Shown: positions 6,301 to 61,275 of the stretch, piece by piece | Numbering within the stretch: the first letter of the stretch is position 1 | Layout: the number at the start of each line of letters is the position of its first letter | DNA from: Minisyncoccia bacterium | GTDB taxonomy: Bacteria > Patescibacteriota > Minisyncoccia > Phycocordibacterales > GWA1-40-21 | Reading direction: 5' to 3' | Length of the DNA: 64,000 nt | NCBI GenBank assembly: GCA_049695975.1 | Contig: JBAVTE010000012.1 | Span: forward strand, 71,665-135,664 | Translations under genes and position numbers: made by a program | The notes under the pieces: generated by a model | What the model saw: the letters and a program-made list of their open reading frames with translations, nothing else | Databases searched by the model: none | Told to the model about the DNA's origin: nothing

Positions 6301-7638
6301 CTATTTCAACATTGTTTGTATTTGTTCTATTTCGTTTGCAAGTACACTGTCATTTTTAATATCATTTTTAATTTTCTCATATGAATGTATGACTGTCGAA
6401 TGGTCTCTGTTACCCACTTTTTCCCCGATTGATGGAAAAGATATGTCAAAATTTTCCCTCAAAATATACATTATTATCTGTCTTGGTTTAATAACTTCTT
6501 TTTTTCTACCCTTTTCGTATATTTCTTCTTCCTTAATTCCATAAAATTCAGAAATTGTTTTAATAACTTCTTTAACAGATCTATTTTTCTTTGGTTTTGT
6601 GGTATTTTTAATTAAATCTTTAATTTCATTTATGTTTAAATCTTTGTTTTTTAGTTGAGTTTGGCAAAAAATAGAGTTTAAAACTCCCTCAAGTTCTCTT
6701 ATATTACCTTCTATTGATGATGCAAGATATTCTATTATTTCGCTTGATATAGAAAGATTCATAAGGGATGATTTTTTTGTAAAAATTTGGATTCTTGATT
6801 CAAAATCTGGCTTCTGAATCTCCACTATCATCCCTGCATTGAATCTGGATTTAATTCTATCTTCTATATCAGGAATAAAATTAGGGTGTTTGTCTGAAGA
6901 AAATATTAATTGTTTACTATTATCATGAAAATTATTAAACAAATGGAAAAATTCTTCTTGGGACTTGTCTTTTTTTGATAAAAACTGGATATCGTCGATA
7001 ATAAGCATGTCATACTTCTTATATTTTTCTTTAAAATTGTTTATTGTGCCGTTAGTTAAAGAGTTAAAATAATCATTAACAAATTTTTCCGAAGTCATAT
7101 AGAAGATTTTTTTAGTTGGGTCGCTTGTTTTAAAATGATTCCCTATCGCCTGTATGAGGTGGGTCTTACCGTGACCTGTGCTTCCATAAATAAAAAGTGG
7201 ATTATAAATGACAGATTTTTTTAGTATTGCTTGAGATGCTGCGTGGGCGAGCTCATTGAAAGGGCCGACGACGAATGAATTGAAGGTATATTTTGGGTTT
7301 AAGTTGTCTTCTTTGTTTATATAACATTCGTGTAAGGGCAACTCATTGTGATGTGGGGTTTTTGCCTCCTCAGATGATTTTTTTATTTCTTCTTTTGATA
7401 CAAGATATTGAATAGCCCTGATGTGCTCACCAAAATTTCTTAAATTTTTCATAATATCCTTATGATATTTATTGAAAAGCCAGTCTTTTACAAAAACATT
7501 TGGTACGGCCAAAAATACTACGCCATCTTCCTGCTTTATAATATAAGTATCTTTGAACCACATACTAAAATTGGCTTTTGACAGAGCCAATTCCATCCCA
7601 GCGAGAACATTATTCCAAAGCGTTTTGTTGTCTAACAT
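6301..7638 (-). CDS. dnaA: chromosomal replication initiator DnaA
   Basis: Walker A GSTGHGKTHL, AAA+ motifs, and a C-terminal DnaA-box-binding helix-turn-helix (…IGEKVGNRDHSTVIH…). Confidence 0.95.
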   Translation of the reverse strand: MLDNKTLWNNVLAGMELALSKANFSMWFKDTYIIKQEDGVVFLAVPNVFVKDWLFNKYHKDIMKNLRNFGEHIRAIQYLVSKEEIKKSSEEAKTPHHNELPLHECYINKEDNLNPKYTFNSFVVGPFNELAHAASQAILKKSVIYNPLFIYGSTGHGKTHLIQAIGNHFKTSDPTKKIFYMTSEKFVNDYFNSLTNGTINNFKEKYKKYDMLIIDDIQFLSKKDKSQEEFFHLFNNFHDNSKQLIFSSDKHPNFIPDIEDRIKSRFNAGMIVEIQKPDFESRIQIFTKKSSLMNLSISSEIIEYLASSIEGNIRELEGVLNSIFCQTQLKNKDLNINEIKDLIKNTTKPKKNRSVKEVIKTISEFYGIKEEEIYEKGRKKEVIKPRQIIMYILRENFDISFPSIGEKVGNRDHSTVIHSYEKIKNDIKNDSVLANEIEQIQTMLK

Positions 7639-7728: not shown

Positions 7729-7848
7729 CCTGCCCCTCTGAAGAAAGTCCTTCTGAACGGCACGGATATTTTTTTGCTAAAAAATTCCTCGTGATCGCGC
7801 CGTCGCGCTCCCAAGTCCGTTCAGAAGGACTTTCTTCAGAGGGGCAGG
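7729..7848. repeat. perfect 32-bp inverted repeat with a 56-nt spacer, in the dnaA-rpmH divergent intergenic region
   Basis: Left arm CCTGCCCCTCTGAAGAAAGTCCTTCTGAACGG at 7729-7760; its exact reverse complement at 7817-7848. The spacer contains the GC-rich 17-mer TCGCGCCGTCGCGCTCC, which also occurs at ~59745. Confidence 0.8.
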
Positions 7849-24144: not shown

Positions 24145-27100
24145 ATGTCAGTTTTAAGAAAGACAATATTTTCTATTTTAGTTTGTGTGATGTTTCTAGG
24201 CGCGTTTTCTTTATTTGTAAAAGCTGAGTCAGACCAAGAGTTAATAAATTTTTTAGAAACTCTTATTACTATTGGAGTTATCCCTTCTGAAAAAGCAGAT
24301 CTTGCAAGGACTATTCTTGCAAATGCTCTTTCAAATACAAGAATAAATAGAGACTTGAAAAAAGGTTCAACAGGTGAAGATGTCAAACTTTTACAAAAAG
24401 TTTTAAACACCAATTCTGCTACTGTAGTGGCTTTGTCTGGTCCAGGTTCCGCTGGAAATGAGACTACTACATTTGGTCCGGCGACAGAAGCTGCTGTCAT
24501 CAAATTTCAAAATTTCTACCATTTTTCACCTACGGGAATTGTAGATGCTGTGACTAGAGCCAAACTGAACGCTCTTTTGAGTGTCATTACCAATACAAAT
24601 GTGCCAGAGGCAGACAGACCAAGTGTAGATTTGAAAGTAAATGGTGAAGACGACAAAGTGCAGATTGGTTATGGTGGTACCGCCACGCTTATGTGGACAT
24701 CTAAAAATGTCACTTCTTGTGTGTCTGGTGCAAACAAAGCCAAACCTACTTTTGGTACCGAATCAATAATGGGGGTAGTTTCTCCTAGTCAGTTTGTGAT
24801 GACTTGCGTGGGTCCCAAAGGTGTAGTTTCAGACAGCGTCACTATGACTATTCTAAACAATAATCAAACAATAAATTCTATAGATTTCGTTGTGTTGGGT
24901 ACAAAAAGTTCAAACACTTCAGACAGTCCGAGTACCCCAAACAATCCAAACAATCCAAACAATCCAAATAAACCAAACGATCCAAGCAAGCCAAATAATC
25001 CAAGCGATCCAAGCAAGCCGGGCGATCCGGGCGATCCAGCTGGTCCGGGTTATTCCATAGGAAGCTTATATGTATATGTAAATGGTGTGAAAAATTATTC
25101 AACGACGACTTCTTCTAGTATTACACATCACATAGTCAGTTGGACTTCTACTGGATATACTAGTTGTAAGGGTAATACTGATCCTGTAATTAACAACCGT
25201 GCCGATGTGTTTGTATCAAATCCTATAACAGGTAGTACCACACTTGATATAGATCCAAATATAACTGGTAAATTAACCATTGTTATGGCCTGTGCCACAG
25301 GAACAGAGGCTGTTAATACTTTAAATAAGACTCCATTGAGTAGTTTAAAAACGTCTGCAAATCTTATTTTAGCTTCTTCTACTTTAACTATTTTGCCACC
25401 TCCCACTGCCTCAAAAACTTTATCTATTCTTGTTAATGGTGTAAAAGATTATTCAACGACAACTTCTTCTACTGTTGACACTTCGCATGTAGTTAGCTGG
25501 GCGTCTACTGGGTTTACCGATTGTAAAGTTACTTCAGATCCTATAATAAACGATCCCGCTGAAATATCAGCTCCTTCGACAAGTAGTACCACGCTTACTA
25601 TAAAACCAAATGTAACTGGAAAATTGAACCTTATTATTGCCTGTGCCACAGGTACTACAGCGGTAAATATTTTAAATCAAAATCCAGCGATTAGTATAAA
25701 GTCATCTGCCAATCTTATGATAGCCAATGCTTCATTAACTCTTACTACCCCACCTATCAAAGGACCCACAGATGTATCAAAAATAATCGGATACGGTCCA
25801 GTAAATAACTGGGAGAAAATTAGCGCTACAAGCCTCGCTAGTCAGCTTGCTATGGCAGGTCTTACTACTACACAAGTGGAATTGAATATTGACCCTTATG
25901 ATAGCAAAAGAACAGCCACTATTTTATTGCCGAAATTGAAAGCATTTATTACTGCGATGAGAGCCCAGAAAATTACAACTTTTGTAAATTTGGTAAATGG
26001 AAAATTGCACGACGAAACAGGAAATGACTACATATGCAGGTCATTATTTACTGATCAATTATTCACAGATACTGTGAACTACATTACCCAAAATATTGGT
26101 ACTGACTTGGTTATTCTTCAGCCCGTAAGCGAATGGGTTAGTGAATGTCATGACAAGAGAGATAGATTTATAAATATATTTAAAGGTTTATGGAAAGGAC
26201 TGAAGTCGTATTATGTTGGATCGCATTCAGCACCACCAAGTTCTGATTGGTTCAAAGAATATCATCCAAGTAGCTTTACTGATTATGGTAATAGCGGAGA
26301 ATTGGTAAGTACTGATAGTGGTGCAGTTTTGAATGCTATTGGCCAAGGAGGAGATGGTCTTGCATTTGCCGACACAAAAAAACTCCAAGCGTATGCGTGT
26401 CATGTATTACTCGGAGGCACCAGAGGATTCATTTATTATGGTTATGGACACACGGCGATTGACAGTGGTGCTATTACAGCCCTAGGACAACTTTTAAGAG
26501 AAAAACCTACTAGCTGTGCAGCTTATGATGCAGCTTTGCTTGAATGTCAGGGTCAAGAAATATCAGTTGATTTTGCTGGAATTGTGGAAGCTATGGGGCA
26601 GTGTAATGGACGATGGCAACTTGTTATTAAACCTTATACTAATAGTAGTGGTGTGACAGAGCCTGTAGTGACAGATGTTCCCACACGTATAAATCCAAAT
26701 GGTTGTCAGGAACCTGGAGGCAACTCGGCTGGTATGACTTGGGGAGCTGGAGATAAAACAAGAAAGCTGGTTGTATTTACAAAAGGAGGAAGTCCTCAAG
26801 CTGCTGTCGGGGACTGTGTTCTTGGGACATCAAATGGAAATACTGATGCTATTTGTGATGAAACGGATCCTGCTTTGATATGTGATGGTATTTCGGATGG
26901 AAAAGTTAGAAGCGCAGTAGAAGGTTCAGATGTATTTGTGGCAGGTGGTGTTATACAAGATATGGGGGCCAGTGCATGTAGTGGTGCTACTTCCCCTGCT
27001 GAGGATGGTTCAACTGCTGATGAAGGGGGTGGCGGAAGTGTTTTCGGTATGCAAACTGTTCAATGGACTAGTGCCGGGATTGCTGCTGGTTGTACGGCTG

Positions 27101-27174
27101 GCCCCGTAGGATGTTCCACCGGGCATGTTGTTGGAAGTGCTATCGGCTTAGGCAGTGATCTTGGTTGGTGGTAA
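24145..27174 (+). CDS. very large secreted protein: peptidoglycan-binding domain, Pro/Asn-rich linker, two Ig-like repeats, C-terminal ~460-aa Cys-rich domain
   Basis: Signal peptide, a PG_binding_1-like region (GSTGEDVKLLQKVLN…FGPATEAAVIKFQ), a PNNPNNPNNPNKPNDPSKP linker and duplicated ~110-aa modules. The C-terminal domain is of unknown function. Confidence 0.5.
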   Translation: MSVLRKTIFSILVCVMFLGAFSLFVKAESDQELINFLETLITIGVIPSEKADLARTILANALSNTRINRDLKKGSTGEDVKLLQKVLNTNSATVVALSGPGSAGNETTTFGPATEAAVIKFQNFYHFSPTGIVDAVTRAKLNALLSVITNTNVPEADRPSVDLKVNGEDDKVQIGYGGTATLMWTSKNVTSCVSGANKAKPTFGTESIMGVVSPSQFVMTCVGPKGVVSDSVTMTILNNNQTINSIDFVVLGTKSSNTSDSPSTPNNPNNPNNPNKPNDPSKPNNPSDPSKPGDPGDPAGPGYSIGSLYVYVNGVKNYSTTTSSSITHHIVSWTSTGYTSCKGNTDPVINNRADVFVSNPITGSTTLDIDPNITGKLTIVMACATGTEAVNTLNKTPLSSLKTSANLILASSTLTILPPPTASKTLSILVNGVKDYSTTTSSTVDTSHVVSWASTGFTDCKVTSDPIINDPAEISAPSTSSTTLTIKPNVTGKLNLIIACATGTTAVNILNQNPAISIKSSANLMIANASLTLTTPPIKGPTDVSKIIGYGPVNNWEKISATSLASQLAMAGLTTTQVELNIDPYDSKRTATILLPKLKAFITAMRAQKITTFVNLVNGKLHDETGNDYICRSLFTDQLFTDTVNYITQNIGTDLVILQPVSEWVSECHDKRDRFINIFKGLWKGLKSYYVGSHSAPPSSDWFKEYHPSSFTDYGNSGELVSTDSGAVLNAIGQGGDGLAFADTKKLQAYACHVLLGGTRGFIYYGYGHTAIDSGAITALGQLLREKPTSCAAYDAALLECQGQEISVDFAGIVEAMGQCNGRWQLVIKPYTNSSGVTEPVVTDVPTRINPNGCQEPGGNSAGMTWGAGDKTRKLVVFTKGGSPQAAVGDCVLGTSNGNTDAICDETDPALICDGISDGKVRSAVEGSDVFVAGGVIQDMGASACSGATSPAEDGSTADEGGGGSVFGMQTVQWTSAGIAAGCTAGPVGCSTGHVVGSAIGLGSDLGWW
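24940..25050 (+). repeat. in-frame tandem 9-15 nt repeats (AATCCAAAC units) encoding the PNNPN linker
   Basis: Direct reading of ccaaacaatccaaacaatccaaacaatccaaataaacca…. Confidence 0.8.
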
Positions 27175-27188
27175 AGGTACTTTAAAAC

Positions 27189-27215
27189 CCATGTCAAGGA
27201 CGGTCCTTGACATGG
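27189..27215. repeat. REP-like palindrome copy 1 (CCATGTCAAGGAC G GTCCTTGACATGG)
   Basis: Two perfect 13-nt arms around a single central G, lying 26 nt upstream of the Y1-transposase ORF. Confidence 0.85.
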
Positions 27216-27240
27216 TAGGACCAAATAGTATTATGAATAT

Positions 27241-27933
27241 ATGCAAAGAAATATAGTACTTTCAGTTGGTGAATATTATCATATATACAGTCGTGGAGTT
27301 GAAAAAAGAAAAATTTTTCTTAATGAAAGAGATTATGAAAGATTTACAATTTTAATTTACTTATGCAACTCTGAAAAAGTGGTACACGTAAGCGATCATA
27401 AAGAAAAAAAATTAATAGAGTTTTTTGGTTTAGAGAAGGGTAAGAATCTTGTTGATATTGGTGCGTATTGTCTTATGCCCAATCATTTTCATTTATTGCT
27501 TAAAGAAAAAATTGAGGGGGGTATTACCCTTTTTATGAAAAAGCTTCTTACTGGGTATTCAATGTATTTTAATAAAAAATATAATAGAACAGGGCCTCTT
27601 TTTGAGGGGAGATTTAAAGCAAAACATTTGAATTATGATCAATATCTTAAATACCAGTTTACATATATTCATCTTAATCCTATAGGAATTATTGATAATG
27701 GTTGGAAAAACAAAGAAATCAGTAATGTTGAAAGAGGATTGAAATTTCTACAAGATTATAAATATTCAAGTTTTTTGGATTATTCTAGGGGAGAAAGGAT
27801 AACTGGTAAAATATTAAATAAGGGTTCCTTTCCAGAATATTTTCAAAATAAAATTGAGTTTTCTGATATGGTAAAAGAATGGATGAACTTTGAAAAAGAC
27901 GATGTCAAGGACGGTCCTTGCGAAGTTGTGTGA
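27241..27933 (+). CDS. IS200/IS605-like Y1 (HUH) transposase, REP-associated tyrosine transposase (RAYT)-like
   Basis: HxH motif NHFHLLL, conserved Tyr-containing C-terminal half and a Transposase_17-like N-terminus (YHIYSRG). Flanked on both sides by the same palindrome. Confidence 0.7.
   Translation: MQRNIVLSVGEYYHIYSRGVEKRKIFLNERDYERFTILIYLCNSEKVVHVSDHKEKKLIEFFGLEKGKNLVDIGAYCLMPNHFHLLLKEKIEGGITLFMKKLLTGYSMYFNKKYNRTGPLFEGRFKAKHLNYDQYLKYQFTYIHLNPIGIIDNGWKNKEISNVERGLKFLQDYKYSSFLDYSRGERITGKILNKGSFPEYFQNKIEFSDMVKEWMNFEKDDVKDGPCEVV
27902..27920. repeat. REP-like palindrome copy 2 (19-nt core ATGTCAAGGACGGTCCTTG)
   Basis: Identical 19-mer. It lies in the convergent overlap of the transposase 3' end and the rsmA 3' end, and encodes …LRKDRP* of RsmA. 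Confidence 0.85.
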
Positions 27934-28708
27934 CTAGCCCCATCCATTTTTCTAGAGATAGGTCTTCAGCCCTAATTTTTTCTGATATTTTGCAATCAAT
28001 AAAAATCTGTTGCAGATTTTTATTTGGGAATTCTTTTTTTAGATTTCCCAAAAGCATTTTTCTTTTGCTGGAGAAACCTAGTTTTATGATTTCAAAAAAT
28101 TGTTCTTCCTCGATACTATTTTCAGTAAATAATTTTTTTGAAATATTTGAAATTTGTAAAACGGCAGAATCAACATTTGGTGAAGGTTGAAAACTTCCCC
28201 TACTCACTTTCATTATTATTTCTGGACTCCCATAGACCTTTACGCTGATAGAAAGTATGCTTTCCTTTCCATCATTTGCTACTATTCTATCAGCAATTTC
28301 TTTTTGGACCATCACAATAATTTCTGAAGGCTGGTAATCCGTTTCCAAAAACTTTCTTAAAAATTGTCCTGTTATGTAGTATGGTATGTTTGCGATGATT
28401 TTGTATTTACCAATGTCAAGGACGGTCCTTGGGGTAGATAAAATATCCCCTTCTATTAGTTCAAATTTTTTATTTTTTATTTCTTTTGAAAACTTTTCTT
28501 TTAAAATCTCTATTAAACGGTGGTCTTTTTCCACAGCAATTACCTTGCATCCTTTTTCCAGGAGTTTTTCTGTGAGGGCACCTTCCCCAGGTCCGACTTC
28601 TAGGACAATATCACTTGCAGAGATATCTCCTGTATCAGCAATTTTTTGCAAAACTCCATCGTTTTTCAAAAAATTTTGTCCCAATGATTTTTTTGCTTGT
28701 ATAGTCAT
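27905..28708 (-). CDS. rsmA: 16S rRNA (adenine1518/1519-N6)-dimethyltransferase RsmA/KsgA
   Basis: SAM-binding motif VLEVGPGEGALT and the NIPYYIT motif, at the length typical of KsgA. It contains an in-frame copy of the REP-like 19-mer at 28413-28431, encoding PRTVLDIG. Confidence 0.85.
   Translation of the reverse strand: MTIQAKKSLGQNFLKNDGVLQKIADTGDISASDIVLEVGPGEGALTEKLLEKGCKVIAVEKDHRLIEILKEKFSKEIKNKKFELIEGDILSTPRTVLDIGKYKIIANIPYYITGQFLRKFLETDYQPSEIIVMVQKEIADRIVANDGKESILSISVKVYGSPEIIMKVSRGSFQPSPNVDSAVLQISNISKKLFTENSIEEEQFFEIIKLGFSSKRKMLLGNLKKEFPNKNLQQIFIDCKISEKIRAEDLSLEKWMGLVTQLRKDRP
28413..28431. repeat. REP-like palindrome copy 3, embedded in-frame within the rsmA coding sequence
   Basis: The 19-nt ATGTCAAGGACGGTCCTTG is identical to copies 1 and 2. 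On the minus strand it translates as P-R-T-V-L-D-I-G in the variable region between the GD.L and N(L/I)PY motifs of KsgA. Confidence 0.85.
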
Positions 28709-28709
28709 A

Positions 28710-30653
28710 TTACCATTCTAAATATATTATCTTTTCTCTATATTCAAAATTCTCCTCTTCTAAGTGCTCATTGTCAATGTCTGCAAAAAATCTCGATGGC
28801 ATATTGCATTGAAGTGAACCATAAATGGTTCGTGTTTCAGAATAAGTCAAAAAAAGTTTTTTCTTTGCTCTTGTAATTGCTACATAGAAAAGTCTTCTTT
28901 CCTCCTCTTCTTCCTCGGGTGTTCTTTCTGATTTCCCGACAGGTTGATGAGGAAAGAGGTCTTCTTCAAGCCCAGTAATAAAAATATATTCAAACTCTAG
29001 ACCTTTTGATGCGTGGACGGTCATTAGTTTTACTGCATTTTCTTTTTTTTCAAGCGAATCCTGATCTGTGGTAAGCGCCGACTCTTCCAAAAGTTTTTCT
29101 ATTCCCTCTCCGATTGGCAAATAGTCGTATTTTGTTGCAAGGGTTGCTAGTTCTTTAATATTTTCTAGTCGTTCTTTTTCTTCCTCTGTTCCATTGATGA
29201 GGTCTTTCTCGATTCCACTTTCTTTGATAATAAATTTGATCACATCAGAAGGTTTTTCTTCCTCGGACGCCTTTTTTATTTTGCTGAGCAAAATAAAAAA
29301 GGCGTCCACCTTCTCTTTTATTCCCTCCGTCAATTTTTCTTTTTCCCCACCAAAAATCTTCAAAATAGTAACTTTACCTATCCCCCTCGCTGGAACATTT
29401 ATAATTCTTTTTATATCAGTTAAACTTTCTTGGTTCAAGGATGCTTTTAAAAAAGCTAAAATATCTTTAATTTCTTTTCTTTCAAAAAATTTTGTACCAA
29501 GGACCTGATACGGTGCCCCCTCGGTAAGAAATGCCTCTTCTATGACTCGTGACTGAAAATTGGCTCTATATAGCACCGCAATCTCATTTGGAACCACGCC
29601 CTTTTCTATGAGTTCTTTTGCTTTTCTTGCAATAAATCTCGCTTCTTCCACTTCCGTCTTTGCCCTGAGATATGAAACTTTTTCTCCATCAGAATTTTTT
29701 GTAAAAAGGTTTTTTTCTTTTCTGATTTTATTTTTTGAGATGACTTTGTTTGCTACAGTAAGGATCGTTTGTGTGGAACGGTAATTCTGTTCTAATAAAA
29801 TTACTTTTGCTTTTGGGTAATCTTTTTCAAAATCCAAAATATTTTGAATGTCTGCTCCACGCCAGCTATAAATATTCTGATCTACATCACCTACCACGCA
29901 GATATTTTTGTATTTTTCTGCAAGAAGCTTTACCATTCTATATTGAACTTTGTTTGTGTCTTGATATTCATCTATGTGAATATATTTCCATATTTCTTGA
30001 TATTTTTCGAGAATTTCTTTGTGATTATTTAAAAGAGAATAAGTTTTTAAAAGTAAGTCATCAAAGTCTAACCCTTTTTCTTCCCTTAGTTTTTGCTCAT
30101 AGAGTGGCCAGACTTTTGCTACGACTCCTGCAAGGGTAAAACCTTTTCCTGCAGTTTGAGAGTAATTTTCTGGTGTGTTTGTTTCACTCTTTTCTCTCGA
30201 AATAATATTTAAAATTTTCGATGGTTCAAATTGTTTTGGATCAATATCCAAGTTTTTTAGGATATCTTTTACAATTTTAGTAGAATCGCTTCTGTCTATT
30301 ATTGAAAAGTTTCTGGTAAGTCCGATGATCCGAGCATTTTCCTTTAAAATATGTACACCGAGAGAATGAAATGTGCTGACAAATGGTTTTTCATATGTGT
30401 TTATGGGAAAATTTAAACTTTTATCTTCAGACATTATCTTTTCTACCCTTTCTTTCATCTCTTTACCGGCTTTGTTTGTAAAAGTTATGGCCAAAATATT
30501 GTGTGGAGCCACACCCTCTTTTATCAAATGCAAAATTCTGTGAGTGATGGTTTTGGTCTTACCTGCACCGGCACCAGCGATGATCAAAACTGGTCCTTCT
30601 GTATACAAAACCGCCTCTTTTTGTTTTTCATTTAAGCCATTTAGATAATCCAC
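28710..30653 (-). CDS. pcrA: ATP-dependent DNA helicase PcrA/UvrD family
   Basis: Helicase motif I AGAGAGKTKT, UvrD-like motifs throughout, 647 aa. Confidence 0.85.
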   Translation of the reverse strand: MDYLNGLNEKQKEAVLYTEGPVLIIAGAGAGKTKTITHRILHLIKEGVAPHNILAITFTNKAGKEMKERVEKIMSEDKSLNFPINTYEKPFVSTFHSLGVHILKENARIIGLTRNFSIIDRSDSTKIVKDILKNLDIDPKQFEPSKILNIISREKSETNTPENYSQTAGKGFTLAGVVAKVWPLYEQKLREEKGLDFDDLLLKTYSLLNNHKEILEKYQEIWKYIHIDEYQDTNKVQYRMVKLLAEKYKNICVVGDVDQNIYSWRGADIQNILDFEKDYPKAKVILLEQNYRSTQTILTVANKVISKNKIRKEKNLFTKNSDGEKVSYLRAKTEVEEARFIARKAKELIEKGVVPNEIAVLYRANFQSRVIEEAFLTEGAPYQVLGTKFFERKEIKDILAFLKASLNQESLTDIKRIINVPARGIGKVTILKIFGGEKEKLTEGIKEKVDAFFILLSKIKKASEEEKPSDVIKFIIKESGIEKDLINGTEEEKERLENIKELATLATKYDYLPIGEGIEKLLEESALTTDQDSLEKKENAVKLMTVHASKGLEFEYIFITGLEEDLFPHQPVGKSERTPEEEEEERRLFYVAITRAKKKLFLTYSETRTIYGSLQCNMPSRFFADIDNEHLEEENFEYREKIIYLEW

Positions 30654-32114: not shown

Positions 32115-32247
32115 AAAAACAAAATTTTCGTAGCAAAGTGCTTTTGAACATCCTTGGGAGTCGCGACTGGAGACGGACAGAGAAAATTTTTTGCAAAAAA
32201 TTTTCGTGATGGTCAAAAGCATTTTGTGGAGGGAGTTTTTGTTTCAG
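32115..32247 (+). repeat. MITE-like element B1 (palindrome-embedded repeat, family B)
   Basis: ~80-nt core CTTTTGAACATCCTTGGGAGTCGCGACTGGAGACGGACAGAGAAAATTTTTTGCAAAAAATTTTCGTGATGGTCAAAAG, about 90% identical to B2 and B3, set inside its own flanking inverted repeat. Lies between the convergent lysM-M23 gene and comM. Confidence 0.7.
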
Positions 32248-38075: not shown

Positions 38076-38888
38076 TTACAAATTCAAATCCAACAAAACA
38101 GGACAGTGATCAGAGCCAAAAATATTATTTAGGATTTCTGCGCGGAAAACTTTTGGTGCGAGGTCAGGGGAGACGAAAAAGTAATCTAGACGCCAGCCGA
38201 TATTGCGATCACGAGCAAAGGTTTTCATATCCCACCAGCTATACTGAACTTTTTGTGGATAAAGTGCACGAAAAGTATCTATCCAACCGTGTGAAATAAG
38301 TTTATCCATCCAATCCCTTTCAATTCGCAAAAATCCGGTGTGATCTTCATTTTCTTTTGGCCTTGCGATATCAATTTCATTGTGCGCTGTATTTACGTCT
38401 CCGCAAAAAATGACTGACTTTCCTTGTTTTTTTAGCTTTTCTATAAATTTCAGGAATTCAGCATAGTATTCAAGTTTGTAGGCAAGTCGGTCTTCTCCAC
38501 CTCCACCATTTGGAAAATAAACATTAATTAAAACCCAGCCATTAAGGGCAGACCTTTTTTCAGATTCAAGGTCTGACCTTGGGGAATTGAAATATGCGAC
38601 GAGTGTGCGCCCTTCTTCATCAAATTTTTTAATTCCTAGACCGTACTCCACTTTTTCAGGTTTCTCTTTTGAATAAATAGCTACTCCGCTGTAACCTTTT
38701 TTTAATTTTGAATGGTCAAAAAATGCGTGGTAGCCGGGAGGAGAGTGAAGCTCTTCTGAAAGTTGTTCGGGATGCGCTTTCGTCTCCTGTAAACAAATAA
38801 TATTCGGATCAAATTCAAAAATCTGATTGAACTTATCCTTTTTTCCGAGGGAGCGTAGACCGTTTACATTCCATGAAATGATTTTCAT
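38076..38888 (-). CDS. xth: exodeoxyribonuclease III / AP endonuclease
   Basis: MKIISWNVNGLRS…CLQETK… and a C-terminal SDHCPV motif; 270 aa. Confidence 0.9.
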   Translation of the reverse strand: MKIISWNVNGLRSLGKKDKFNQIFEFDPNIICLQETKAHPEQLSEELHSPPGYHAFFDHSKLKKGYSGVAIYSKEKPEKVEYGLGIKKFDEEGRTLVAYFNSPRSDLESEKRSALNGWVLINVYFPNGGGGEDRLAYKLEYYAEFLKFIEKLKKQGKSVIFCGDVNTAHNEIDIARPKENEDHTGFLRIERDWMDKLISHGWIDTFRALYPQKVQYSWWDMKTFARDRNIGWRLDYFFVSPDLAPKVFRAEILNNIFGSDHCPVLLDLNL

Positions 38889-41659: not shown

Positions 41660-41791
41660 AATCCCGTTAGAGATAGATGAATTTTTTTGCAACAAAAAAA
41701 TTCATCGTAGAGAACCCACGTTCTCAATTTAACAGGATTTATCAGGTAATCAGATTAAGTGCCAATTCATAACACTTTAATCTCTAACGGG
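41660..41791 (+). promoter_or_regulatory. conserved structured 5' leader element, copy L1 (upstream of pnp)
   Basis: Begins AATCCCGTTAGAGATAG, contains two internal perfect hairpins, and ends …CAGATTAAGTGCCAATTCATAACACTTTAATCTCTAACGGG immediately before the ATG. The 5' 14 nt are the exact reverse complement of the 3' 14 nt (ATCTCTAACGGGAT), which includes the A and U of the start codon. Copies L2 and L3 are at 48302-48425 and 61153-61275. Confidence 0.6.
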
Positions 41792-43909
41792 ATGCATAAG
41801 AAAGAATTTTCGACAGAGTTTGGAGGTAGGACACTTACTGCGGAGTTTAGTGATCTCGCAGAAAACGCGCATGGTTCAGTACTTTTGAAATATGGAAACA
41901 CAATGGTTTTTGCCACGGCTGTTATTTCAAAAGAACCAAAGTTGGGGGGAGACTATCTGCCTCTCACCGTCGATTATGAAGAAAAGTTTTATGCAAGCGG
42001 TCAGATTCTTGGAAGTAGATTTATGAAAAGAGAAGGTAAACCATCGGACGAAGCTATTTTGACTGGAAGAATTGTAGATAGAACTATTCGTCCACTTTTT
42101 GATCAGTGGATTAGACACGAAATACAAGTGGTGGTCACCGTACTTTCTCTAGACACAGATGATCCAGACATACTTTCTGTTATTGCAGCATCTCTTGCGG
42201 TTTCCGTTTCCAAAATTCCATTTCATGGACCTGTCAGCGCCACAAGAGTTGGTAAACACAAACTTGATGGTTTTCAAATAAATCCGTCATATATTGAAAG
42301 AGAAAATGAAAATTATGAAATCGATCTTATTGCCTGTGGAAAAGATGGAAATATCAATATGATAGAACTTGGTGGAGATGAAGCCCAGGAGTCAGTCGTT
42401 GTGGAAGGTCTTAATCTTGCATCAATAGAAATAGAAAAAATAAATGAGTGGCAAAAGAAAATTATTTCTGAAATTGGTGAAAAAAAGATTTCACTTCCTG
42501 CTCCGGTAATGCCAGAAACTGTGTCCAAACTTTTTTCAGATAAAATTGAGCCAAAGCTCGAAAGTTTTGTAATGAGTGGAATTCCAGGCGGGTCAAAAAT
42601 AGGCGAAATAATGTCGGAGTGGATGAATCTAGCCGAGAAAAATTTTCCGGAAGATGTGCATTTTGCTGAACATTTATTTGAAGAAAAAGTAGATGCAATG
42701 ATTCATGATCAGGCATTGAAAAATAACAAGAGAGCAGATGGTAGAGGAATTGATGATTTGCGACCTCTTTTTGCACAAGCGGGTGGAGTCTCTCCAATAC
42801 TTCATGGTTCAGGAATCTTTTATAGAGGAGGAACGCACATTTTGACGACACTTACCCTCGGTGGACCAAGTGATGCACAAATAATAGATGGAATGGAAGA
42901 AAGTAATAATGCAAAAAGATTTATGCACCATTACAATTTCCCTCCATATTCAACTGGCGAGACAGGAAAAATGGGTGGAACAAATAGAAGAATGATAGGC
43001 CATGGCGCACTCGCTGAAAAAGCTCTTTTGCCAATGATTCCTTCTAATAGCGTTTTTCCTTACACAATTCGTCTAGTATCTGAAGCATTTTCTTCAAACG
43101 GTTCAACTTCAATGGGTTCTGTTTGTGGATCTACTCTTGCTCTCATGGACGGAGGTGTGCCAATCAAGAAACCGGTAGCTGGAATTGCTTCAGGATTAAT
43201 GATGGATGAAAAAGGAAATTATAAAGTTCTCACAGATATTCAAGGCCCCGAGGATCATTATGGTGATATGGATTTTAAAGTTGCGGGGACAAAAGATGGA
43301 GTTACTGCTATTCAAATGGATGTAAAAGTCAGTGGTGTTCCTGTAAATATTCTCGCCGAGGCCTTTGAAAAAGCAAAAATTGCACGACTCAAAATTCTCG
43401 ATGTGATTTTGAAAGCTATTGCTGAACCAAGAAAAGATATTTCAGCAAACGCACCAAAAATTTTAGTAATAAAAATTAAACCGGATCAGATTGGTGGAGT
43501 GATTGGTTCTGGGGGAAAAGTTATTAAAGAAATTAAAGAAAAAACTGGTGCTGATATCGATATTGAAGATGATGGCACTGTGTATTGTACCGGCAAAGAC
43601 GGTTCGGCAGAAAAGGCCAAGTTGATTATTGAAGCTATGACTCATGAATACAAGGCAGGAGAAAGATACGAGGGAATTGTAACAAAAACCACCGATTTTG
43701 GTGCTTTTGTGAAAATTGGGATGGGTGATACAGAAGGCCTTGTACATGTTTCAGAAATTGCACCTTTTAGAGTAGATAATGTCAGCACGATTTTGAAAGA
43801 AGGAGACAAAGTACCAGTCGTTGTAAAAGGTATAGATGAAAGAGGACGTATTAGTCTTTCTATTAAACTAGCTGATTCAGAATGGGCACAAAAGAAGTTG
43901 GGAAAATAA
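41792..43909 (+). CDS. pnp: polynucleotide phosphorylase
   Basis: Two RNase PH domains, KH and S1 domains at the C-terminus. The ORF-track start (GTG at 41759, giving MPIHNTLISNGM) lies inside the shared leader. The start is more likely the ATG at 41792 (MHKKEFSTEF…). Confidence 0.9.
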   Translation: MHKKEFSTEFGGRTLTAEFSDLAENAHGSVLLKYGNTMVFATAVISKEPKLGGDYLPLTVDYEEKFYASGQILGSRFMKREGKPSDEAILTGRIVDRTIRPLFDQWIRHEIQVVVTVLSLDTDDPDILSVIAASLAVSVSKIPFHGPVSATRVGKHKLDGFQINPSYIERENENYEIDLIACGKDGNINMIELGGDEAQESVVVEGLNLASIEIEKINEWQKKIISEIGEKKISLPAPVMPETVSKLFSDKIEPKLESFVMSGIPGGSKIGEIMSEWMNLAEKNFPEDVHFAEHLFEEKVDAMIHDQALKNNKRADGRGIDDLRPLFAQAGGVSPILHGSGIFYRGGTHILTTLTLGGPSDAQIIDGMEESNNAKRFMHHYNFPPYSTGETGKMGGTNRRMIGHGALAEKALLPMIPSNSVFPYTIRLVSEAFSSNGSTSMGSVCGSTLALMDGGVPIKKPVAGIASGLMMDEKGNYKVLTDIQGPEDHYGDMDFKVAGTKDGVTAIQMDVKVSGVPVNILAEAFEKAKIARLKILDVILKAIAEPRKDISANAPKILVIKIKPDQIGGVIGSGGKVIKEIKEKTGADIDIEDDGTVYCTGKDGSAEKAKLIIEAMTHEYKAGERYEGIVTKTTDFGAFVKIGMGDTEGLVHVSEIAPFRVDNVSTILKEGDKVPVVVKGIDERGRISLSIKLADSEWAQKKLGK

Positions 43910-45000: not shown

Positions 45001-45071
45001 TGTAACGGTAGCATACGTGCTTTGGGAGCATGCAGTCCGAGTTCAAATCTCGGTACCCCGACAATAATTAC
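45001..45071 (+). tRNA. tRNA-Pro (anticodon TGG)
   Basis: Acceptor CGGGGTA/TACCCCG, anticodon stem CGTGC/GCATG with loop TTTGGGA, T-arm CCGAG-TTCAAAT-CTCGG. Confidence 0.7.
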
Positions 45072-45185: not shown

Positions 45186-45211
45186 CAAATCTCGGTACCC
45201 CGACAATAATT
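45186..45211 (+). repeat. direct repeat of the tRNA-Pro 3' end plus trailer (26 nt), 106 nt downstream of the tRNA
   Basis: CAAATCTCGGTACCCCGACAATAATT at 45054-45079 is repeated exactly at 45186-45211. The 106-nt insert between them contains CGAGATTTGAA, the reverse complement of the tRNA T-arm. Confidence 0.8.
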
Positions 45212-47955: not shown

Positions 47956-48020
47956 AAAAAAAGAATCGGGGTGTTTAAATTTTAAGGTTCTTAAAATTTA
48001 AACACCCCGATTCTTTTTTT
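47956..48020. terminator. long perfect palindrome (29-bp arms, 5-nt loop) between convergent response-regulator gene and hup
   Basis: AAAAAAGAATCGGGGTGTTTAAATTTTAA-GGTTC-TTAAAATTTAAACACCCCGATTCTTTTTT. The arm sequence resembles the palindrome at 259-351 (…GTATTTAAATTTT…). Confidence 0.6.
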
Positions 48021-48028
48021 AGTAATTA

Positions 48029-48301
48029 CTATCGAACTGCCTCTTTCAAGGCCTTTGCTGCTCTAAATTTTGGAACTTTCATAGCTGGAACGGAGATTGA
48101 TTCTCCTGTTCTTGGGTTTCTGGCTTGTCTGGCGGCTCTCTGTTTGACAGAGAAGATACCGAGACCTGCAATAGAAACATCTTCGCCTTTCTTTAAACCA
48201 CCGACAATTGTATCAATAACTATATCCACGACTTGCTCTGACTGAACTTTTGTTCCATTAAGCAATTTATTTACTGCCTCTGCAATTGATTGTTTATTCA
48301 T
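48029..48301 (-). CDS. hup: DNA-binding protein HU
   Basis: MNKQSIAEAVNKLLNGTKVQSEQVV…RNPRTGESISVPAMKVPKFRAAKALKEAV is a typical 90-aa HU. The ORF-track start (48334, MPIHNTLISNGM…) lies inside the shared leader copy L2. Confidence 0.85.
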   Translation of the reverse strand: MNKQSIAEAVNKLLNGTKVQSEQVVDIVIDTIVGGLKKGEDVSIAGLGIFSVKQRAARQARNPRTGESISVPAMKVPKFRAAKALKEAVR

Positions 48302-48425
48302 CCCGTTAGAGATTAAAGTGTTATGAATTGGCACTTAATCTGGTTAAAAAATAAATCCTGTTAAATCTCGAGAAGTTGTATTCTCTTCGGAAACAATCTG
48401 ATCGTTTCCTATCTCTAACGGGATT
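48302..48425 (-). promoter_or_regulatory. conserved structured 5' leader element, copy L2 (upstream of hup, minus strand)
   Basis: The minus-strand sequence AATCCCGTTAGAGATAG…ATTTAACAGGATTTAT…CAGATTAAGTGCCAATTCATAACACTTTAATCTCTAACGGG-ATG is identical to L1 over the last ~45 nt and the first 17 nt. Its internal hairpins differ from L1 but remain hairpins. Confidence 0.6.
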
Positions 48426-51192: not shown

Positions 51193-51333
51193 AAAAAAGA
51201 CCGAGAAAACTTATAACAAAACGCTTTTGTCCGTCACGAAAATTTTTTACTAAAAATCTTCTCTGTCCGTCGCCAGTCGCAACTTCCAAGGACGTTCGAA
51301 AGCGTTTTGTTATAAGTTTTCTCGGTCTTTTTT
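51193..51333 (-). repeat. MITE-like element B3 (family B core in reverse orientation inside a 33-bp perfect inverted repeat)
   Basis: Flanking AAAAGACCGAGAAAACTTATAACAAAACGCTTT…AAAGCGTTTTGTTATAAGTTTTCTCGGTCTTTT. The reverse-complemented core matches B1 and B2 (TTCGAACGTCCTTGGAAGTTGCGACTGGCGACGGACAGAGAAGATTTTTAG…). Lies between convergent thrH and clpP. Confidence 0.7.
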
Positions 51334-54486: not shown

Positions 54487-54796
54487 TATCTCTTTCGACT
54501 TTTTTCTCGTCGTCACTCGAAAAAGTCTGGGTACCAGCTCGTCTATTTTTCTTGCTAGAAAAATATGATTCCGCTGTTCGATTCCTACACGCAAGCAAAG
54601 CAGTTTGCTTGCTTTCGGGCCCAAATAGAAAAAGACGCCGAAGCGTCTCTTTTTAAATTTGTGAACCACGACTTTTGCCTTTCGTGAACTCAAGGCAAAG
54701 TCGCAGTCCCCGCCTCCTTCGCTTTGCTCAGTCCGGCCGGCACATTGCAAAAGAAAATCGCCTTTGGATCATTGGCGATTTTCATATATTTGCAAT

Positions 54797-54812
54797 GTGC
54801 CCTCAGTAGGAA
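54797..54812. repeat. copy of tRNA-Lys 3'-end segment, second of three
   Basis: Exact repeat of the 16-mer GTGCCCTCAGTAGGAA. Confidence 0.8.
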
Positions 54813-54832
54813 ATCTTCCATTACATGGACGG

Positions 54833-54896
54833 TACACCTTTTCTGTTTTCTGTTCGTGAAGACACTCCAGAAAACTATCAAAGGTCTTCGATTCCT
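54833..54896. repeat. 64-nt sequence shared with the tRNA-Arg locus (59447-59510)
   Basis: TACACCTTTTCTGTTTTCTGTTCGTGAAGACACTCCAGAAAACTATCAAAGGTCTTCGATTCCT is identical at both loci. It contains a GAAGAC…GTCTTC hairpin and a T-arm-like TTCGATTCC. Confidence 0.85.
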
Positions 54897-54949
54897 AACG
54901 CAAGGTCTCCCAGACCTTGCTCTGAGGGCACTCTTCATTTCATTCATCG

Positions 54950-57351: not shown

Positions 57352-58240
57352 ACTTCCAGAAGTAGAAACTACTTGCAGAATTTTGGATAAAAAAATAAAA
57401 AATCTTTTTATAGAAGATGTTTGGACAGATTACCGTGGAAAATCTGCGAAATATTCTTTGGGAATAAAAGATTCAGAATATTTTTATAATTTTAAAAAAG
57501 AAATCATCAATAAGAAAATCCTCGGTGTGGAGAGAAGAGCAAAAAATGTTTTGATAAAACTTTCGGAAGGAAACACTGTTTTGATTCATATGAAAATGAC
57601 GGGGCATCTTTTGTATGGTGAATATGATTTTTTAAATAAAAAATGGTCGCCAAAAGAGGGCGGTGCATTGAAAGATCCATACAATAGATTTGTCCATTTA
57701 GTTTTTTCTTTGTCTGATGGAAAGAAACTTGTACTTTCCGATGCGAGAAAGTTTGCAAAGATTTTACTTCTAGAAAGAGAAAAATGCGAGGAAGAATTTT
57801 GTGAAACAGGACCAGAACCCCTAAATAAAAGTTTTTCTTACAAGATTTTTACAGAACGGATTAATAAAAGACCAAAAAGTAAAATAAAAACTGTTTTAAT
57901 GGATCAAAATGTAATTGCTGGGATAGGAAATATCTATTCCGATGAAATTTTATGGACTTCCTCCGTGCATCCAGAAAAAATAGTAAAAAATCTTTCAGAA
58001 AAGCAAAAGAAAGAAATTTATAAAAATATAAGAATTATTTTAGAAAAATCCATTAAACTCGGCGGGGATTCAATGTCTGATTATCGCAATCCGTATGGTG
58101 AAAAGGGGAGATTTCAAGATTTTCATAAGGTTTACAGAAAGACCGGAGAAAAATGTGTAAAAAAGGGCTGTTCGGGAATTATTAAAAGAATTATCGTGGG
58201 TGGTAGGAGCACCCATTTCTGCCCAGTGCATCAAGTTTAA
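57344..58240 (+). CDS. mutM: formamidopyrimidine-DNA glycosylase
   Basis: N-terminal MPELPEVET, an H2TH region and a C-terminal zinc finger (C…C…CPVHQ). Confidence 0.85.
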   Translation: MPELPEVETTCRILDKKIKNLFIEDVWTDYRGKSAKYSLGIKDSEYFYNFKKEIINKKILGVERRAKNVLIKLSEGNTVLIHMKMTGHLLYGEYDFLNKKWSPKEGGALKDPYNRFVHLVFSLSDGKKLVLSDARKFAKILLLEREKCEEEFCETGPEPLNKSFSYKIFTERINKRPKSKIKTVLMDQNVIAGIGNIYSDEILWTSSVHPEKIVKNLSEKQKKEIYKNIRIILEKSIKLGGDSMSDYRNPYGEKGRFQDFHKVYRKTGEKCVKKGCSGIIKRIIVGGRSTHFCPVHQV

Positions 58241-58251
58241 AAAATAACTAT

Positions 58252-58384
58252 AAAAAACAAAAACCTCGTAACAAAGTACTTTTGAACGTCCTTGGAAGTC
58301 GCGACTGGCGACGGACAGAGAAAATTTTTAGCAAAAAATTTTCGTGATGGTCAAAAGTATTTTATGGAGAGGTTTTTGTTTTTT
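58252..58384 (+). repeat. MITE-like element B2 (family B)
   Basis: Core CTTTTGAACGTCCTTGGAAGTCGCGACTGGCGACGGACAGAGAAAATTTTTAGCAAAAAATTTTCGTGATGGTCAAAAG inside the inverted repeat AAAAAACAAAAACCTC…GAGGTTTTTGTTTTTT. Lies between convergent mutM and ruvA. Confidence 0.7.
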
Positions 58385-58394
58385 ATAGTTGTTT

Positions 58395-58964
58395 TTACTT
58401 ACCAAGAATCTTAAGTGCCTCTTTTATTTTCTTGCCAGTTTCCTTGTGTTCATCACCCACTTTTTTTAAAGCATCTCTGGCCTCATCATGTGAATATCCG
58501 AGAGTTTTTAGTGCCTCGAGTGCATCGGATTCTTCTTTGAGTCCTTCATAGTCTCCAGCTTCTCCAATAATTTTATCTTTAAGTTCTAAAACAATTTTAT
58601 CGGCCATCTTTTTACCCATGCCAGAAATTTTGACAAGTGGTCCCACTTCTCCAGTCTTGATAGCCCTCTTTAAGCCATCTACGGTGGCCATGCTCATTAT
58701 GCCCAGAGCTGTTTTTGGACCAATTCCGGAAATAGTGATAAGTAATTCAAAAAAGTCCAAATCTTCTTTTTCTAGAAAACCATAAAGTGTCTGTGCATCT
58801 TCTCGGACAGCGAAGTGAGTCCAAAGAGAAATTTCAACCCCAACTTTTTTATTCTGATGTGACACTTCTGTTGGCACAAAAATTTTATAACCGATGCCAT
58901 TTGTTTCCACTACTATGAATTTTTCTGATAAAAAAATTATTTTTCCAGTAATCTTTGTAATCAT
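58395..58964 (-). CDS. ruvA: Holliday junction DNA helicase RuvA
   Basis: MITKITGKIIFLSEKFIVVETNGIGYKIFVP… with HhH motifs. Confidence 0.85.
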   Translation of the reverse strand: MITKITGKIIFLSEKFIVVETNGIGYKIFVPTEVSHQNKKVGVEISLWTHFAVREDAQTLYGFLEKEDLDFFELLITISGIGPKTALGIMSMATVDGLKRAIKTGEVGPLVKISGMGKKMADKIVLELKDKIIGEAGDYEGLKEESDALEALKTLGYSHDEARDALKKVGDEHKETGKKIKEALKILGK

Positions 58965-59389: not shown

Positions 59390-59422
59390 GAGAGCTCTTT
59401 TTATAATTGTCCCCCCGCCAGG
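59390..59422. repeat. direct repeat of tRNA-Arg 3' end plus 3' flank (33 nt), 143 nt from the tRNA-proximal copy
   Basis: AGAGCTCTTTTTATAATTGTCCCCCCGCCAGGA occurs at 59390-59422 and again at 59566-59598, the latter overlapping the tRNA 3' end. Confidence 0.85.
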
Positions 59423-59446
59423 ATATCTCTCCCTACGGGAGCTGTA

Positions 59447-59510
59447 CACCTTTTCTGTTTTCTGTTCGTGAAGACACTCCAGAAAACTATCAAAGGTCTT
59501 CGATTCCTGG
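59447..59510. repeat. 64-nt sequence shared with the tRNA-Lys locus (54833-54896)
   Basis: Identical 64-mer; see 54833-54896. Confidence 0.85.
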
Positions 59511-59583
59511 ACGAAACTGCTACCCAGCAGTTTCTCGGTGGGACAAAATAAAAAGGCTCTTGGAAGAGCTCTTTTTATAATTG

Positions 59584-59655
59584 TCCCCCCGCCAGGAATC
59601 GAACCTGGATTTCTTCCTTCGCAGGGAAGTGTCCTATCCATTGAACGACGAGGGG
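59584..59655 (-). tRNA. tRNA-Arg (anticodon reads GCG by hand)
   Basis: The reverse complement gives acceptor CCCCTCG/CGGGGGG with one G-U pair, D-stem GTTC/GGAC, anticodon stem CTTCC/GGAAG with loop CTGCGAA, and T-arm CCAGG-TTCGATT-CCTGG. Confidence 0.65.
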
Positions 59656-61152: not shown

Positions 61153-61275
61153 ATCCCTTTAGAGATAGAAACAATCAGATTGATTACGTAAAATTAATCA
61201 AATAATAAAATTTAATAACAATAATTTAATAAATAGATTAAGGTGGTAATTCATAACACATTAATCTCTAACGGG
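61153..61275 (+). promoter_or_regulatory. conserved structured 5' leader element, copy L3 (upstream of capA-like gene)
   Basis: ATCCCTTTAGAGATAG…AAACAATCAGATTG…TAGATTAAGGTGGTAATTCATAACACATTAATCTCTAACGGG-ATG. The 3' 30 nt are nearly identical to L1 and L2, and the 5' end has one mismatch. Confidence 0.55.

Follow-up and report, generated by a model that had tools for sequence, protein, structure and literature searches.

A RAYT-like HUH/Y1 transposase gene flanked by cognate hairpins in a Minisyncoccia genome: a probable minimal REPtron-like unit

Do the small, gene-dense genomes of the Candidate Phyla Radiation (CPR) hold transposase genes that keep their own palindromes beside them? Almost all studies of repetitive extragenic palindromes (REPs) and REP-associated tyrosine transposases (RAYTs) concern Proteobacteria and a handful of other phyla. 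The question arises from a contig of a Minisyncoccia bacterium (JBAVTE010000012.1), of which we analysed 64,000 nt (the window). Here an open reading frame, called tnp below, which encodes an HUH/Y1 transposase for single-stranded DNA (ssDNA), lies between two copies of the 19-nt sequence ATGTCAAGGACGGTCCTTG, with a third copy inside the convergent gene rsmA. An initial annotation had taken the arrangement for a REP/RAYT-like module. The analysis supports a REP/RAYT-like reading that reaches several CPR lineages: the locus is probably a minimal REPtron-like unit, in which a RAYT-type HUH/Y1 gene is bracketed by two cognate hairpins of the form RTGTCAAGGAC-S-GTCCTTGACAY. The features concerned are as follows.

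27189..27215 (no strand assigned): palindrome copy 1, a perfect 13+1+13 hairpin, CCATGTCAAGGAC-G-GTCCTTGACATGG
27207..27234 (+): predicted sigma-70-like tnp promoter, TTGACA, 16 nt, TATTAT, by consensus match only
27241..27933 (+): tnp, HUH/Y1 ssDNA transposase of RAYT type, 230 aa, assigned by domain, motif and fold comparison
27902..27920 (no strand assigned): palindrome copy 2, inner 7+1+7 kept, outer right arm gone
27905..28708 (−): rsmA/ksgA, 16S rRNA A1518/A1519 dimethyltransferase, intact, with two palindrome-derived segments
28413..28431 (no strand assigned): palindrome copy 3, inside rsmA, with a one-sided truncation as in copy 2

The 19-mer is found exactly at 27191-27209, 27902-27920 and 28413-28431, always on the + strand and, as initially annotated, within a perfect hairpin at copy 1. 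These are its only three occurrences in the 64 kb, and it is therefore not a common motif of the window. All three had been described as identical 19-nt palindromes; they are identical as 19-mers, but a strong hairpin exists at copy 1 only. As ssDNA, copy 1 folds with a dG of -12.5 kcal/mol (z -5.4), whereas copies 2 and 3, in which the inner 7+1+7 palindrome is flanked by ATGT on a single side, are weak folders (-4.2 to -5.5 kcal/mol, no different from shuffles). Copy 1 starts 15 nt 3' of the stop codon of the upstream PG_binding gene. Copy 2 lies within the 29 nt over which the 3' ends of tnp and rsmA overlap (27905-27933), where it reads VKDGP in tnp and KDRP-stop in rsmA; it supplies K-D-R-P-stop and one base of the Arg codon, not the Leu also credited to it. 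Copy 3 encodes P93-RTVLDI-G100 in frame, in the variable RsmA loop between GDIL and NIPY, as had been proposed. Its stated position of 500 nt into the gene is off, the rsmA start being 277 nt away and the 3' end 508 nt.

That the three copies are chance similarities, or a misassembly in a metagenome-assembled genome (MAG), is effectively refuted. The window does come from a metagenome-assembled contig of 137.6 kb, but 19 nt is below the usual k-mer length of assemblers, so no repeat-induced misjoins are expected. In 100 of 100 shuffles of the window no match to the 19-mer appeared (chance expectation 0), both open reading frames are intact and full length, and the same architecture is present in dozens of independent assemblies.

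The HUH/Y1 assignment of the reading frame between copies 1 and 2 holds. Its product has the HUH motif H82-F-H84 (within PNHFHLLL), the tyrosine motif Y142-IHLNP with the catalytic tyrosine, a serine pair at 176-177 and the ferredoxin-like core fold of the superfamily, and its C-terminal tail, DVKDGPCEVV, is read from copy 2. The protein passes the Pfam model PF01797 Y1_Tnp over residues 43-143 (32.1 bits against a gathering threshold of 23). Y1_Tnp is likewise matched by all 26 aligned homologues, in which H82, H84, Y142, N146, P147, S176 and S177 are invariant. In NCBIfam the sole match at E ≤ 0.01 is the RAYT model NF047646 REP_Tyr_transpos (E 2e-9), and the fold is closest to TnpA-REP (4er8), nearer than to the TnpA of IS608, ISDra2 or IS200. 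NHFH and Y---NP are the marks of class 2 (RAYT) and DH[VI]H and Y---Q those of IS200 TnpA (PMC6006769); the YIHLNP of tnp carries the class 2 Y---NP. A search returned 7,676 relatives, the best of which (55-64% identical, 215-235 aa) come, where the organism is named, from Patescibacteria-group or Minisyncoccota MAGs; some sources label tnp relatives 'REP element-mobilizing transposase RayT'. A phage vector was considered and rejected: the 21-mer form of the palindrome has no match in IMG/VR, where only two remote tnp relatives occur.

The predicted tnp promoter matches the consensus at 11 of 12 positions, the best score in 27000-28900, and its -35 element TTGACA is the right arm of the copy 1 hairpin. 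The ATG follows TATTAT by 6 nt, so the mRNA is probably leaderless.

Is the bracketing of tnp by palindromes peculiar to this window? We fetched 80 metagenome loci encoding tnp homologues, with flank-sharing statistics on 72 of them. Nearly all 80 have a palindrome centred ~24 or ~38 nt 5' of the ATG, and most share the ~38 nt of copy 1. Nearly all also have a matching palindrome that starts 0-50 nt (mostly 8-16) past a conserved EWxNF motif, and the placement of copy 2 (+13 nt) recurs among them. A 10-mer is common to both tnp flanks in 61 of the 72 loci, where permuted pairs average 4.6 and reach 12 at most; in these 61 the palindrome stands ~48 nt ahead of the ATG and ~13 nt past the conserved C-terminus. 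Stems vary by lineage (TATCAAGG, CCCATAGG, ACCGAGG, CTGCAAGG) around a constant AGG-loop-CCT apex, yet within one locus the palindromes on the two sides of tnp match each other. A tnp gene flanked by its own palindrome is the family-wide architecture. The flanking copies are in direct orientation in 24 loci and inverted in 20, and a TATAAT-like box usually lies between the upstream hairpin and the ATG.

A third, internal copy exists in part of the family: 18/72 loci share a 10-mer with tnp nt +130..+215 (permuted mean 2.2). This copy (for example in L040, L055, L059 and L069) lies at tnp nt +153..+165, about codons 52-55 and before the HUH motif. In translation it gives 'QGxSL', within a variable loop, and it mostly takes the orientation of the upstream copy (12 vs 2). 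The tnp gene of the window has no internal copy. As a separate observation, a DnaA-box-like sequence, TTATCCACA (≤1 mismatch), occurs at -60..-66 nt from the tnp ATG in 18/79 loci, just 5' of the upstream hairpin and ~five-fold above background; the relative L026 has it and the window does not. The box is intriguing because a resemblance to DnaA domain IV has been reported for the tails of subclass 2.1 transposases; none was detected in the tnp tails.

The 19-mer of the window was also searched in a species-representative genome collection of 596 Gb, in which ~4 matches are expected by chance. It is present exactly in 25 stretches, and 22 of these are CPR: Kaiser-, Nomura-, Zambryskii-, Taylor-, Levyi- and Saccharibacteria, Paceibacterota and loosely labelled assemblies, with G+C contents from 36 to 55%. 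MAGs and single-cell assemblies labelled just 'Patescibacteria group' or 'bacterium' were counted as CPR by sequence context. The three matches outside CPR (Thermoplasmatales L002, Paucibacter L017 and Planctomycetia L019) fit the chance expectation in number and were set aside; that in Planctomycetia is the FtsK motif DSRTVLD. In five stretches the 19-mer adjoins a tnp homologue, and in a Levyibacteriota stretch (L018) two copies spaced by 738 nt flank one. Two MAGs hold both a solo and a tnp-flanking copy (L006/L007 and L015/L022).

Most CPR solo copies (12/17) lie within genes or at gene ends. Hosts of in-frame copies that Pfam confirmed are IF-2, Fmt, MetRS, PurH (twice), Dus, a GT1 glycosyltransferase and GrpE; IleRS, LeuRS, RecG and a CysRS-like fragment were named from translation of the open reading frame alone. 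Two frames of the palindrome are open, (M)SRTVLD and CQG[RP]SLT, and the third, VKD[GR]P-TGA, ends in a stop. GrpE ends in VKDRP* with a palindrome-donated stop, like RsmA of the window. In truncated copies the break always falls exactly at the CAAGG/CCTTG boundary, on one side.

These data also bear on another explanation, a host site with a regulatory or structural role (the operator of a conserved CPR DNA-binding protein, an mRNA-stabilising stem-loop or a terminator) that is by coincidence frequent near tnp. Such a site could explain a 21-mer kept over several CPR lineages across so wide a range of G+C, as well as a sequence with TTGACA on both strands that overlaps a promoter-like site, and REPs elsewhere act as RNA elements (PMC3733652). 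We consider the explanation quite improbable, since the palindrome changes by lineage yet matches on both sides of tnp and inside it, since it is used in three different reading frames inside unrelated genes, and since copies 2 and 3 fold so weakly. A terminator role was rejected, as a T-run is missing after every copy. A known RNA family was likewise rejected, Rfam finding only tRNAs in the window.

What, then, became of rsmA? The gene product passes the equivalog model TIGR00755 (230.1 bits against a cut-off of 171) and keeps every invariant column of 26 orthologues, including the S-adenosylmethionine and NxPY motifs. Its palindrome-derived parts are residues 93-100 and the last four codons plus the stop. 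The initial annotation had proposed an in-frame REP insertion in the loop, and this part of the proposal fails. Among 25 close orthologues the segment from GD(I/V)L to NIPY has 12 aa in 21, 9 aa in two and more in two; that of the window has 10 aa, seven of them from the palindrome, and is thus 2 aa below 21 of the 25; against B. subtilis KsgA it lacks 1 aa. A net insertion was ruled out both by the orthologue alignment and by the KsgA structure-sequence alignment. Since the loop is shorter than in most orthologues, the palindrome appears to replace loop sequence. PRTVLD and KDRP are found only in the window among the 120 closest RsmA proteins, being absent from the 119 others, and the segment is therefore not one that orthologues conserve. 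By sequence comparison the loop copy is lineage-specific, replacing rather than adding residues. Most aligned orthologues have a C-terminus shorter by a few residues. A possible pre-existing similarity of the orthologous loop DNA in L028 to the palindrome (~14/18 positions with gaps, by eye) was judged chance because L026 shows no such resemblance. The intragenic copies are tolerated, which is all that can be said of them; the initial term 'domesticated' has no evidence behind it.

Changes of length are small in other hosts as well: 0 aa in Fmt, +3 aa in PurH and +5 aa for two units in Dus. Near length-neutrality may reflect later trimming under selection, or a replacement mechanism. A RAYT-like enzyme, present across several CPR lineages, that writes a near-invariant 19-23-nt palindrome into genes by ssDNA cut-and-replace, a form of cassette exchange, instead of plain insertion would fit the rsmA, Fmt and PurH copies, which barely change protein length. 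It would also fit the exact CAAGG/CCTTG breaks and the tnp-internal copy that matches the flanks across lineages. We regard so far-reaching a mechanism as doubtful. If true, it would amount to a natural ssDNA 'editing' by which essential proteins of minimal genomes have their surface loops and C-termini reshaped.

Two variant palindromes bring the total in the window to three canonical and two variant copies.

38541..38585 (−): in-frame insertion of 45 nt, 15 aa, SPRSDLESEKRSALN, in xth (exonuclease III, 38076-38888)
54900..54920 (no strand assigned): variant AGG-apex palindrome GCAAGGTCT-ccc-AGACCTTGC, intergenic, 29 nt from the tRNA-Lys 3' end

The xth insertion is clean relative to Mth212. 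It is a doublet made of the variant palindrome CAAGGTCaGACCTTG, CAAGGTC-t-GACCTTG (38567-38581), and a degenerate copy with a complementary centre. Complementary centres are the rule in adjacent palindrome pairs (7/7: L003, L005, L014, L021, L023, L025 and xth of the window), which are therefore inverted doublets as in REPINs; there is no doublet at the tnp locus of the window itself. Membership of the 54900..54920 palindrome in the family is uncertain.

Does the unit move as a whole, or does it stay? L026 has the same order of PG_binding gene, tnp, convergent rsmA and uvrD, with its own hairpins and none in rsmA; its tnp and RsmA are 64% and 66% identical to those of the window. Another relative (RsmA 69%) lacks tnp but has, in a spacer of 61 nt and just where copy 1 would be, a degenerate solo palindrome, CAAAGACtGTCCTTG. 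This history fits long residence, with loss by recombination between flanking copies. Across the family, the context of tnp differs in 79/80 loci. A conserved linkage of tnp to rsmA was rejected, as the two are neighbours in 1/80.

The 730-bp hairpin-tnp-hairpin unit might alternatively be an autonomous insertion sequence (IS) of the IS200/IS605 type, its subterminal hairpins being the left and right ends, and the rsmA loop copy and other solo copies being solo ends, excision footprints or preferred targets instead of products of trans-mobilisation. Its size and layout are IS200-like, with a lone Y1 gene and a hairpin at each end, and the changing contexts, four loci with two tnp copies and the relative without tnp at the same site would all suit a mobile element. 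NHFH with Y---NP is nevertheless the class 2 combination and not that of IS200, the fold is nearer to TnpA-REP, and tnp is present once in the 64 kb. At the site shared with L026, tnp and RsmA are equally diverged, which fits long vertical residence. The same palindrome stands at both ends, direct and inverted about equally often, whereas IS200/IS605 ends are distinct, and solo copies consist of nothing more than 19-23-nt hairpins and inverted doublets. Taken together, an autonomous IS is unlikely here.

Several results weigh against the REPtron-like reading that we prefer. Of the profile checks suggested initially for the reading frame, Pfam Y1_Tnp was passed and the RAYT model was not, tnp reaching 37.4 bits against the NF047646 equivalog cut-off of 80. 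A sequence profile of the tnp family compared with the PDB did not reach 4er8 and gave only a weak match to ISDra2, hence the need for fold comparison. Copy number is low, with the five palindromes per 64 kb given above and, around homologues, five palindromes away from the tnp gene in 248 kb. Over the sequences flanking 183 hairpins, GTAG was counted 16 times where 10 are expected, which is no enrichment, and CGTC once against 10; the GTAG beside copies 1 and 3, tried as a REP tag, is probably chance. The tnp proteins beside the same palindrome are just 35-55% identical to that of the window, and the stem is a different one in the closest homologue (64%). Conservation is thus greater in the DNA site than in the protein, and sequence co-evolution of the two is not simple. 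Two tnp copies lie within 10 kb in 4/80 loci, and the whole unit may occasionally be mobile. The near length-neutral copies in rsmA, Fmt and PurH are unpredicted by simple insertion, and mobilisation of the hairpin by the tnp protein is proposed by analogy with E. coli TnpA-REP. The module first annotated therefore stands in its Pfam domain, 4er8-like fold, Y---NP motif and family-wide flanks, and falls short in NCBIfam cut-off, copy number and tag, which makes it RAYT-like and not a canonical REP/RAYT system.

How might such a unit work? The enzyme would bind the hairpin when the DNA is single-stranded, as during replication, and would cut and rejoin at the hairpin foot; the recurrent one-sided truncation at CAAGG/CCTTG suggests a defined joint. 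The hairpin would be copied in trans with a local bias, in the window once to the rsmA 3' end and once to the loop 511 nt away. Copies that survive in gene-dense CPR genomes would be those whose stop-free frames fall in surface loops, as SRTVLD or CQG[RP]SLT, and those at gene ends whose third frame, VKD[GR]P-TGA, gives the stop. By binding the hairpin that overlaps its promoter, the tnp protein probably autoregulates its gene, which would be mostly resident rather than hopping.

On this reading the cognate hairpins of CPR survive mainly inside essential genes (an rRNA methylase, tRNA synthetases, IF-2, repair enzymes), to which they donate loop residues and stop codons, and selfish ssDNA elements can persist in minimal genomes within coding sequence. 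It would explain some lineage-specific 'SRTVLD' or 'KDRP' peptides of CPR proteins. It also offers a short and sharply defined hairpin-enzyme pair for biochemistry on how RAYTs move REPs, a problem still unsolved.

The window contains other repeats. A conserved motif of ~36 nt, GTG..AATTCATAACAC.TTAATCTCTAACGGG, is present at 41759-41796 (+), 48296-48334 (−) and 61243-61280 (+), and in L026 at 7496-7531 (−). It abuts the ATG of three window genes and of rsmA in L026, has 39 invariant columns over the four sequences and no Rfam match, and may be a promoter or leader element. A repeat family of ~100-130 nt (32115-32244, 51216-51320 and 58253-58382; 86-88% identity, one copy inverted) has a look of miniature inverted-repeat transposable elements, with a long inverted repeat within 51193-51333 and another within 58240-58396. 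Exact direct repeats of 33 nt (59391-59423 = 59565-59597) and 26 nt (45044-45069 = 45186-45211) overlap the 3' ends of tRNA-Arg(gcg) and tRNA-Pro. Another pair, 54796-54896 and 59408-59508, shares 101 nt at 85% identity downstream of tRNA-Lys and tRNA-Arg. These tRNA-linked repeats may be integration scars or duplicated tRNA trailers. There are also two perfect inverted repeats, one of 32 nt with a 56-nt spacer (7729-7848) and a terminator-like one of 31 nt with a 3-nt loop and A/T-rich flanks (47956-48020).

How does the family compare with known systems? No report of REP/RAYT in CPR was found in the literature, which is weak evidence because coverage was incomplete, and CPR goes unmentioned in the text of two large surveys. 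From the IS200/IS605 family (IS200, IS608, ISDra2), with which it shares Y1/HUH chemistry, a unit of ~700 bp and hairpins at both gene ends, it differs in motif class and fold sub-type and in having identical rather than distinct ends. The window holds no near-identical multiple copies, and a diverged relative has the gene in a syntenic position.

By inspection, the protein has the features of subclass 2.1, for which NH[YF]H, Y[IV]HLNP, an SS tail motif and a median of 238 aa are described (PMC6006769): NHFH, YIHLNP, S176-S177 and 230 aa. Motifs and length thus liken it to the TIRYTs (subclass 2.1, Bertels group 1; PMC6006769, PMC3733652), some of whose terminal repeats are self-complementary and form small repeat families. 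Subclass 2.1 is reported, however, to have no REP-like sequences near the gene and to have terminal repeats of the form GGGG[AT][CG]A[CG], where the CPR family has AGG-loop-CCT hairpins. No C-terminal helix-turn-helix like Bac_DnaA_C, HTH_23 or HTH_28 was detected in the tnp tail, so the subclass 2.1 combination of such a tail with GGGG[AT][CG]A[CG] terminal inverted repeats and without REPs is not that of the window.

For palindromes inside genes there are published parallels. In-frame intragenic REPs (Di Nocera 2013, PMC3733652; PMC6006769) and, likewise, the Rickettsia palindromic elements (RPEs) are found inside functional genes, among them those for tRNA synthetases and repair proteins; loops are a frequent site, and dimers are frequent too. 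REP copies that keep the transposase reading frame are described inside tnpA-REP of subclass 2.4 (Quentin et al. 2018, PMC6006769). The coding-sequence aspect is therefore not new in kind, and the 'rare case' claimed at first does not hold, the more so as most CPR solo copies sit in or at housekeeping genes. Differences are nonetheless clear. RPEs measure 100-150 bp and have no known transposase, against 19-23 nt (7 aa) for the CPR units; the intragenic REPs described are GTAG/CGTC-tagged and add 20-30 aa, whereas the rsmA, Fmt and PurH copies are near length-neutral; and the internal REP of subclass 2.4 lies between the HUH and Tyr motifs, while the CPR internal copy precedes HUH.

The closest likeness is to the REP/RAYT systems, that is, E. 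coli TnpA-REP with REPs and bacterial interspersed mosaic elements (BIMEs) and the REPIN-RAYT 'REPtrons' of Pseudomonas. Common to these and the CPR family are the HUH/Y1 domain, the Y---NP motif and the 4er8-like fold, a gene bracketed by cognate palindromes with singlets and inverted doublets elsewhere, and a gene that seems mostly single-copy and is syntenic in one relative. Against this, the window protein, at 230 aa, scores under the NCBIfam RAYT cut-off, palindromes appear to be few per genome and lack a 5' GT[AG]G or CGTC tag, and the CPR copies are mostly intragenic where canonical REPs are extragenic. REPs are usually species-specific, whereas one 21-23-mer is kept here over several CPR lineages, with one palindrome on each side of the gene at fixed distances and the upstream one overlapping the promoter. 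With its low copy number, the absence of a GTAG/CGTC tag, its subclass-2.1-like motifs and a palindrome that spans lineages, the CPR family sets itself apart.

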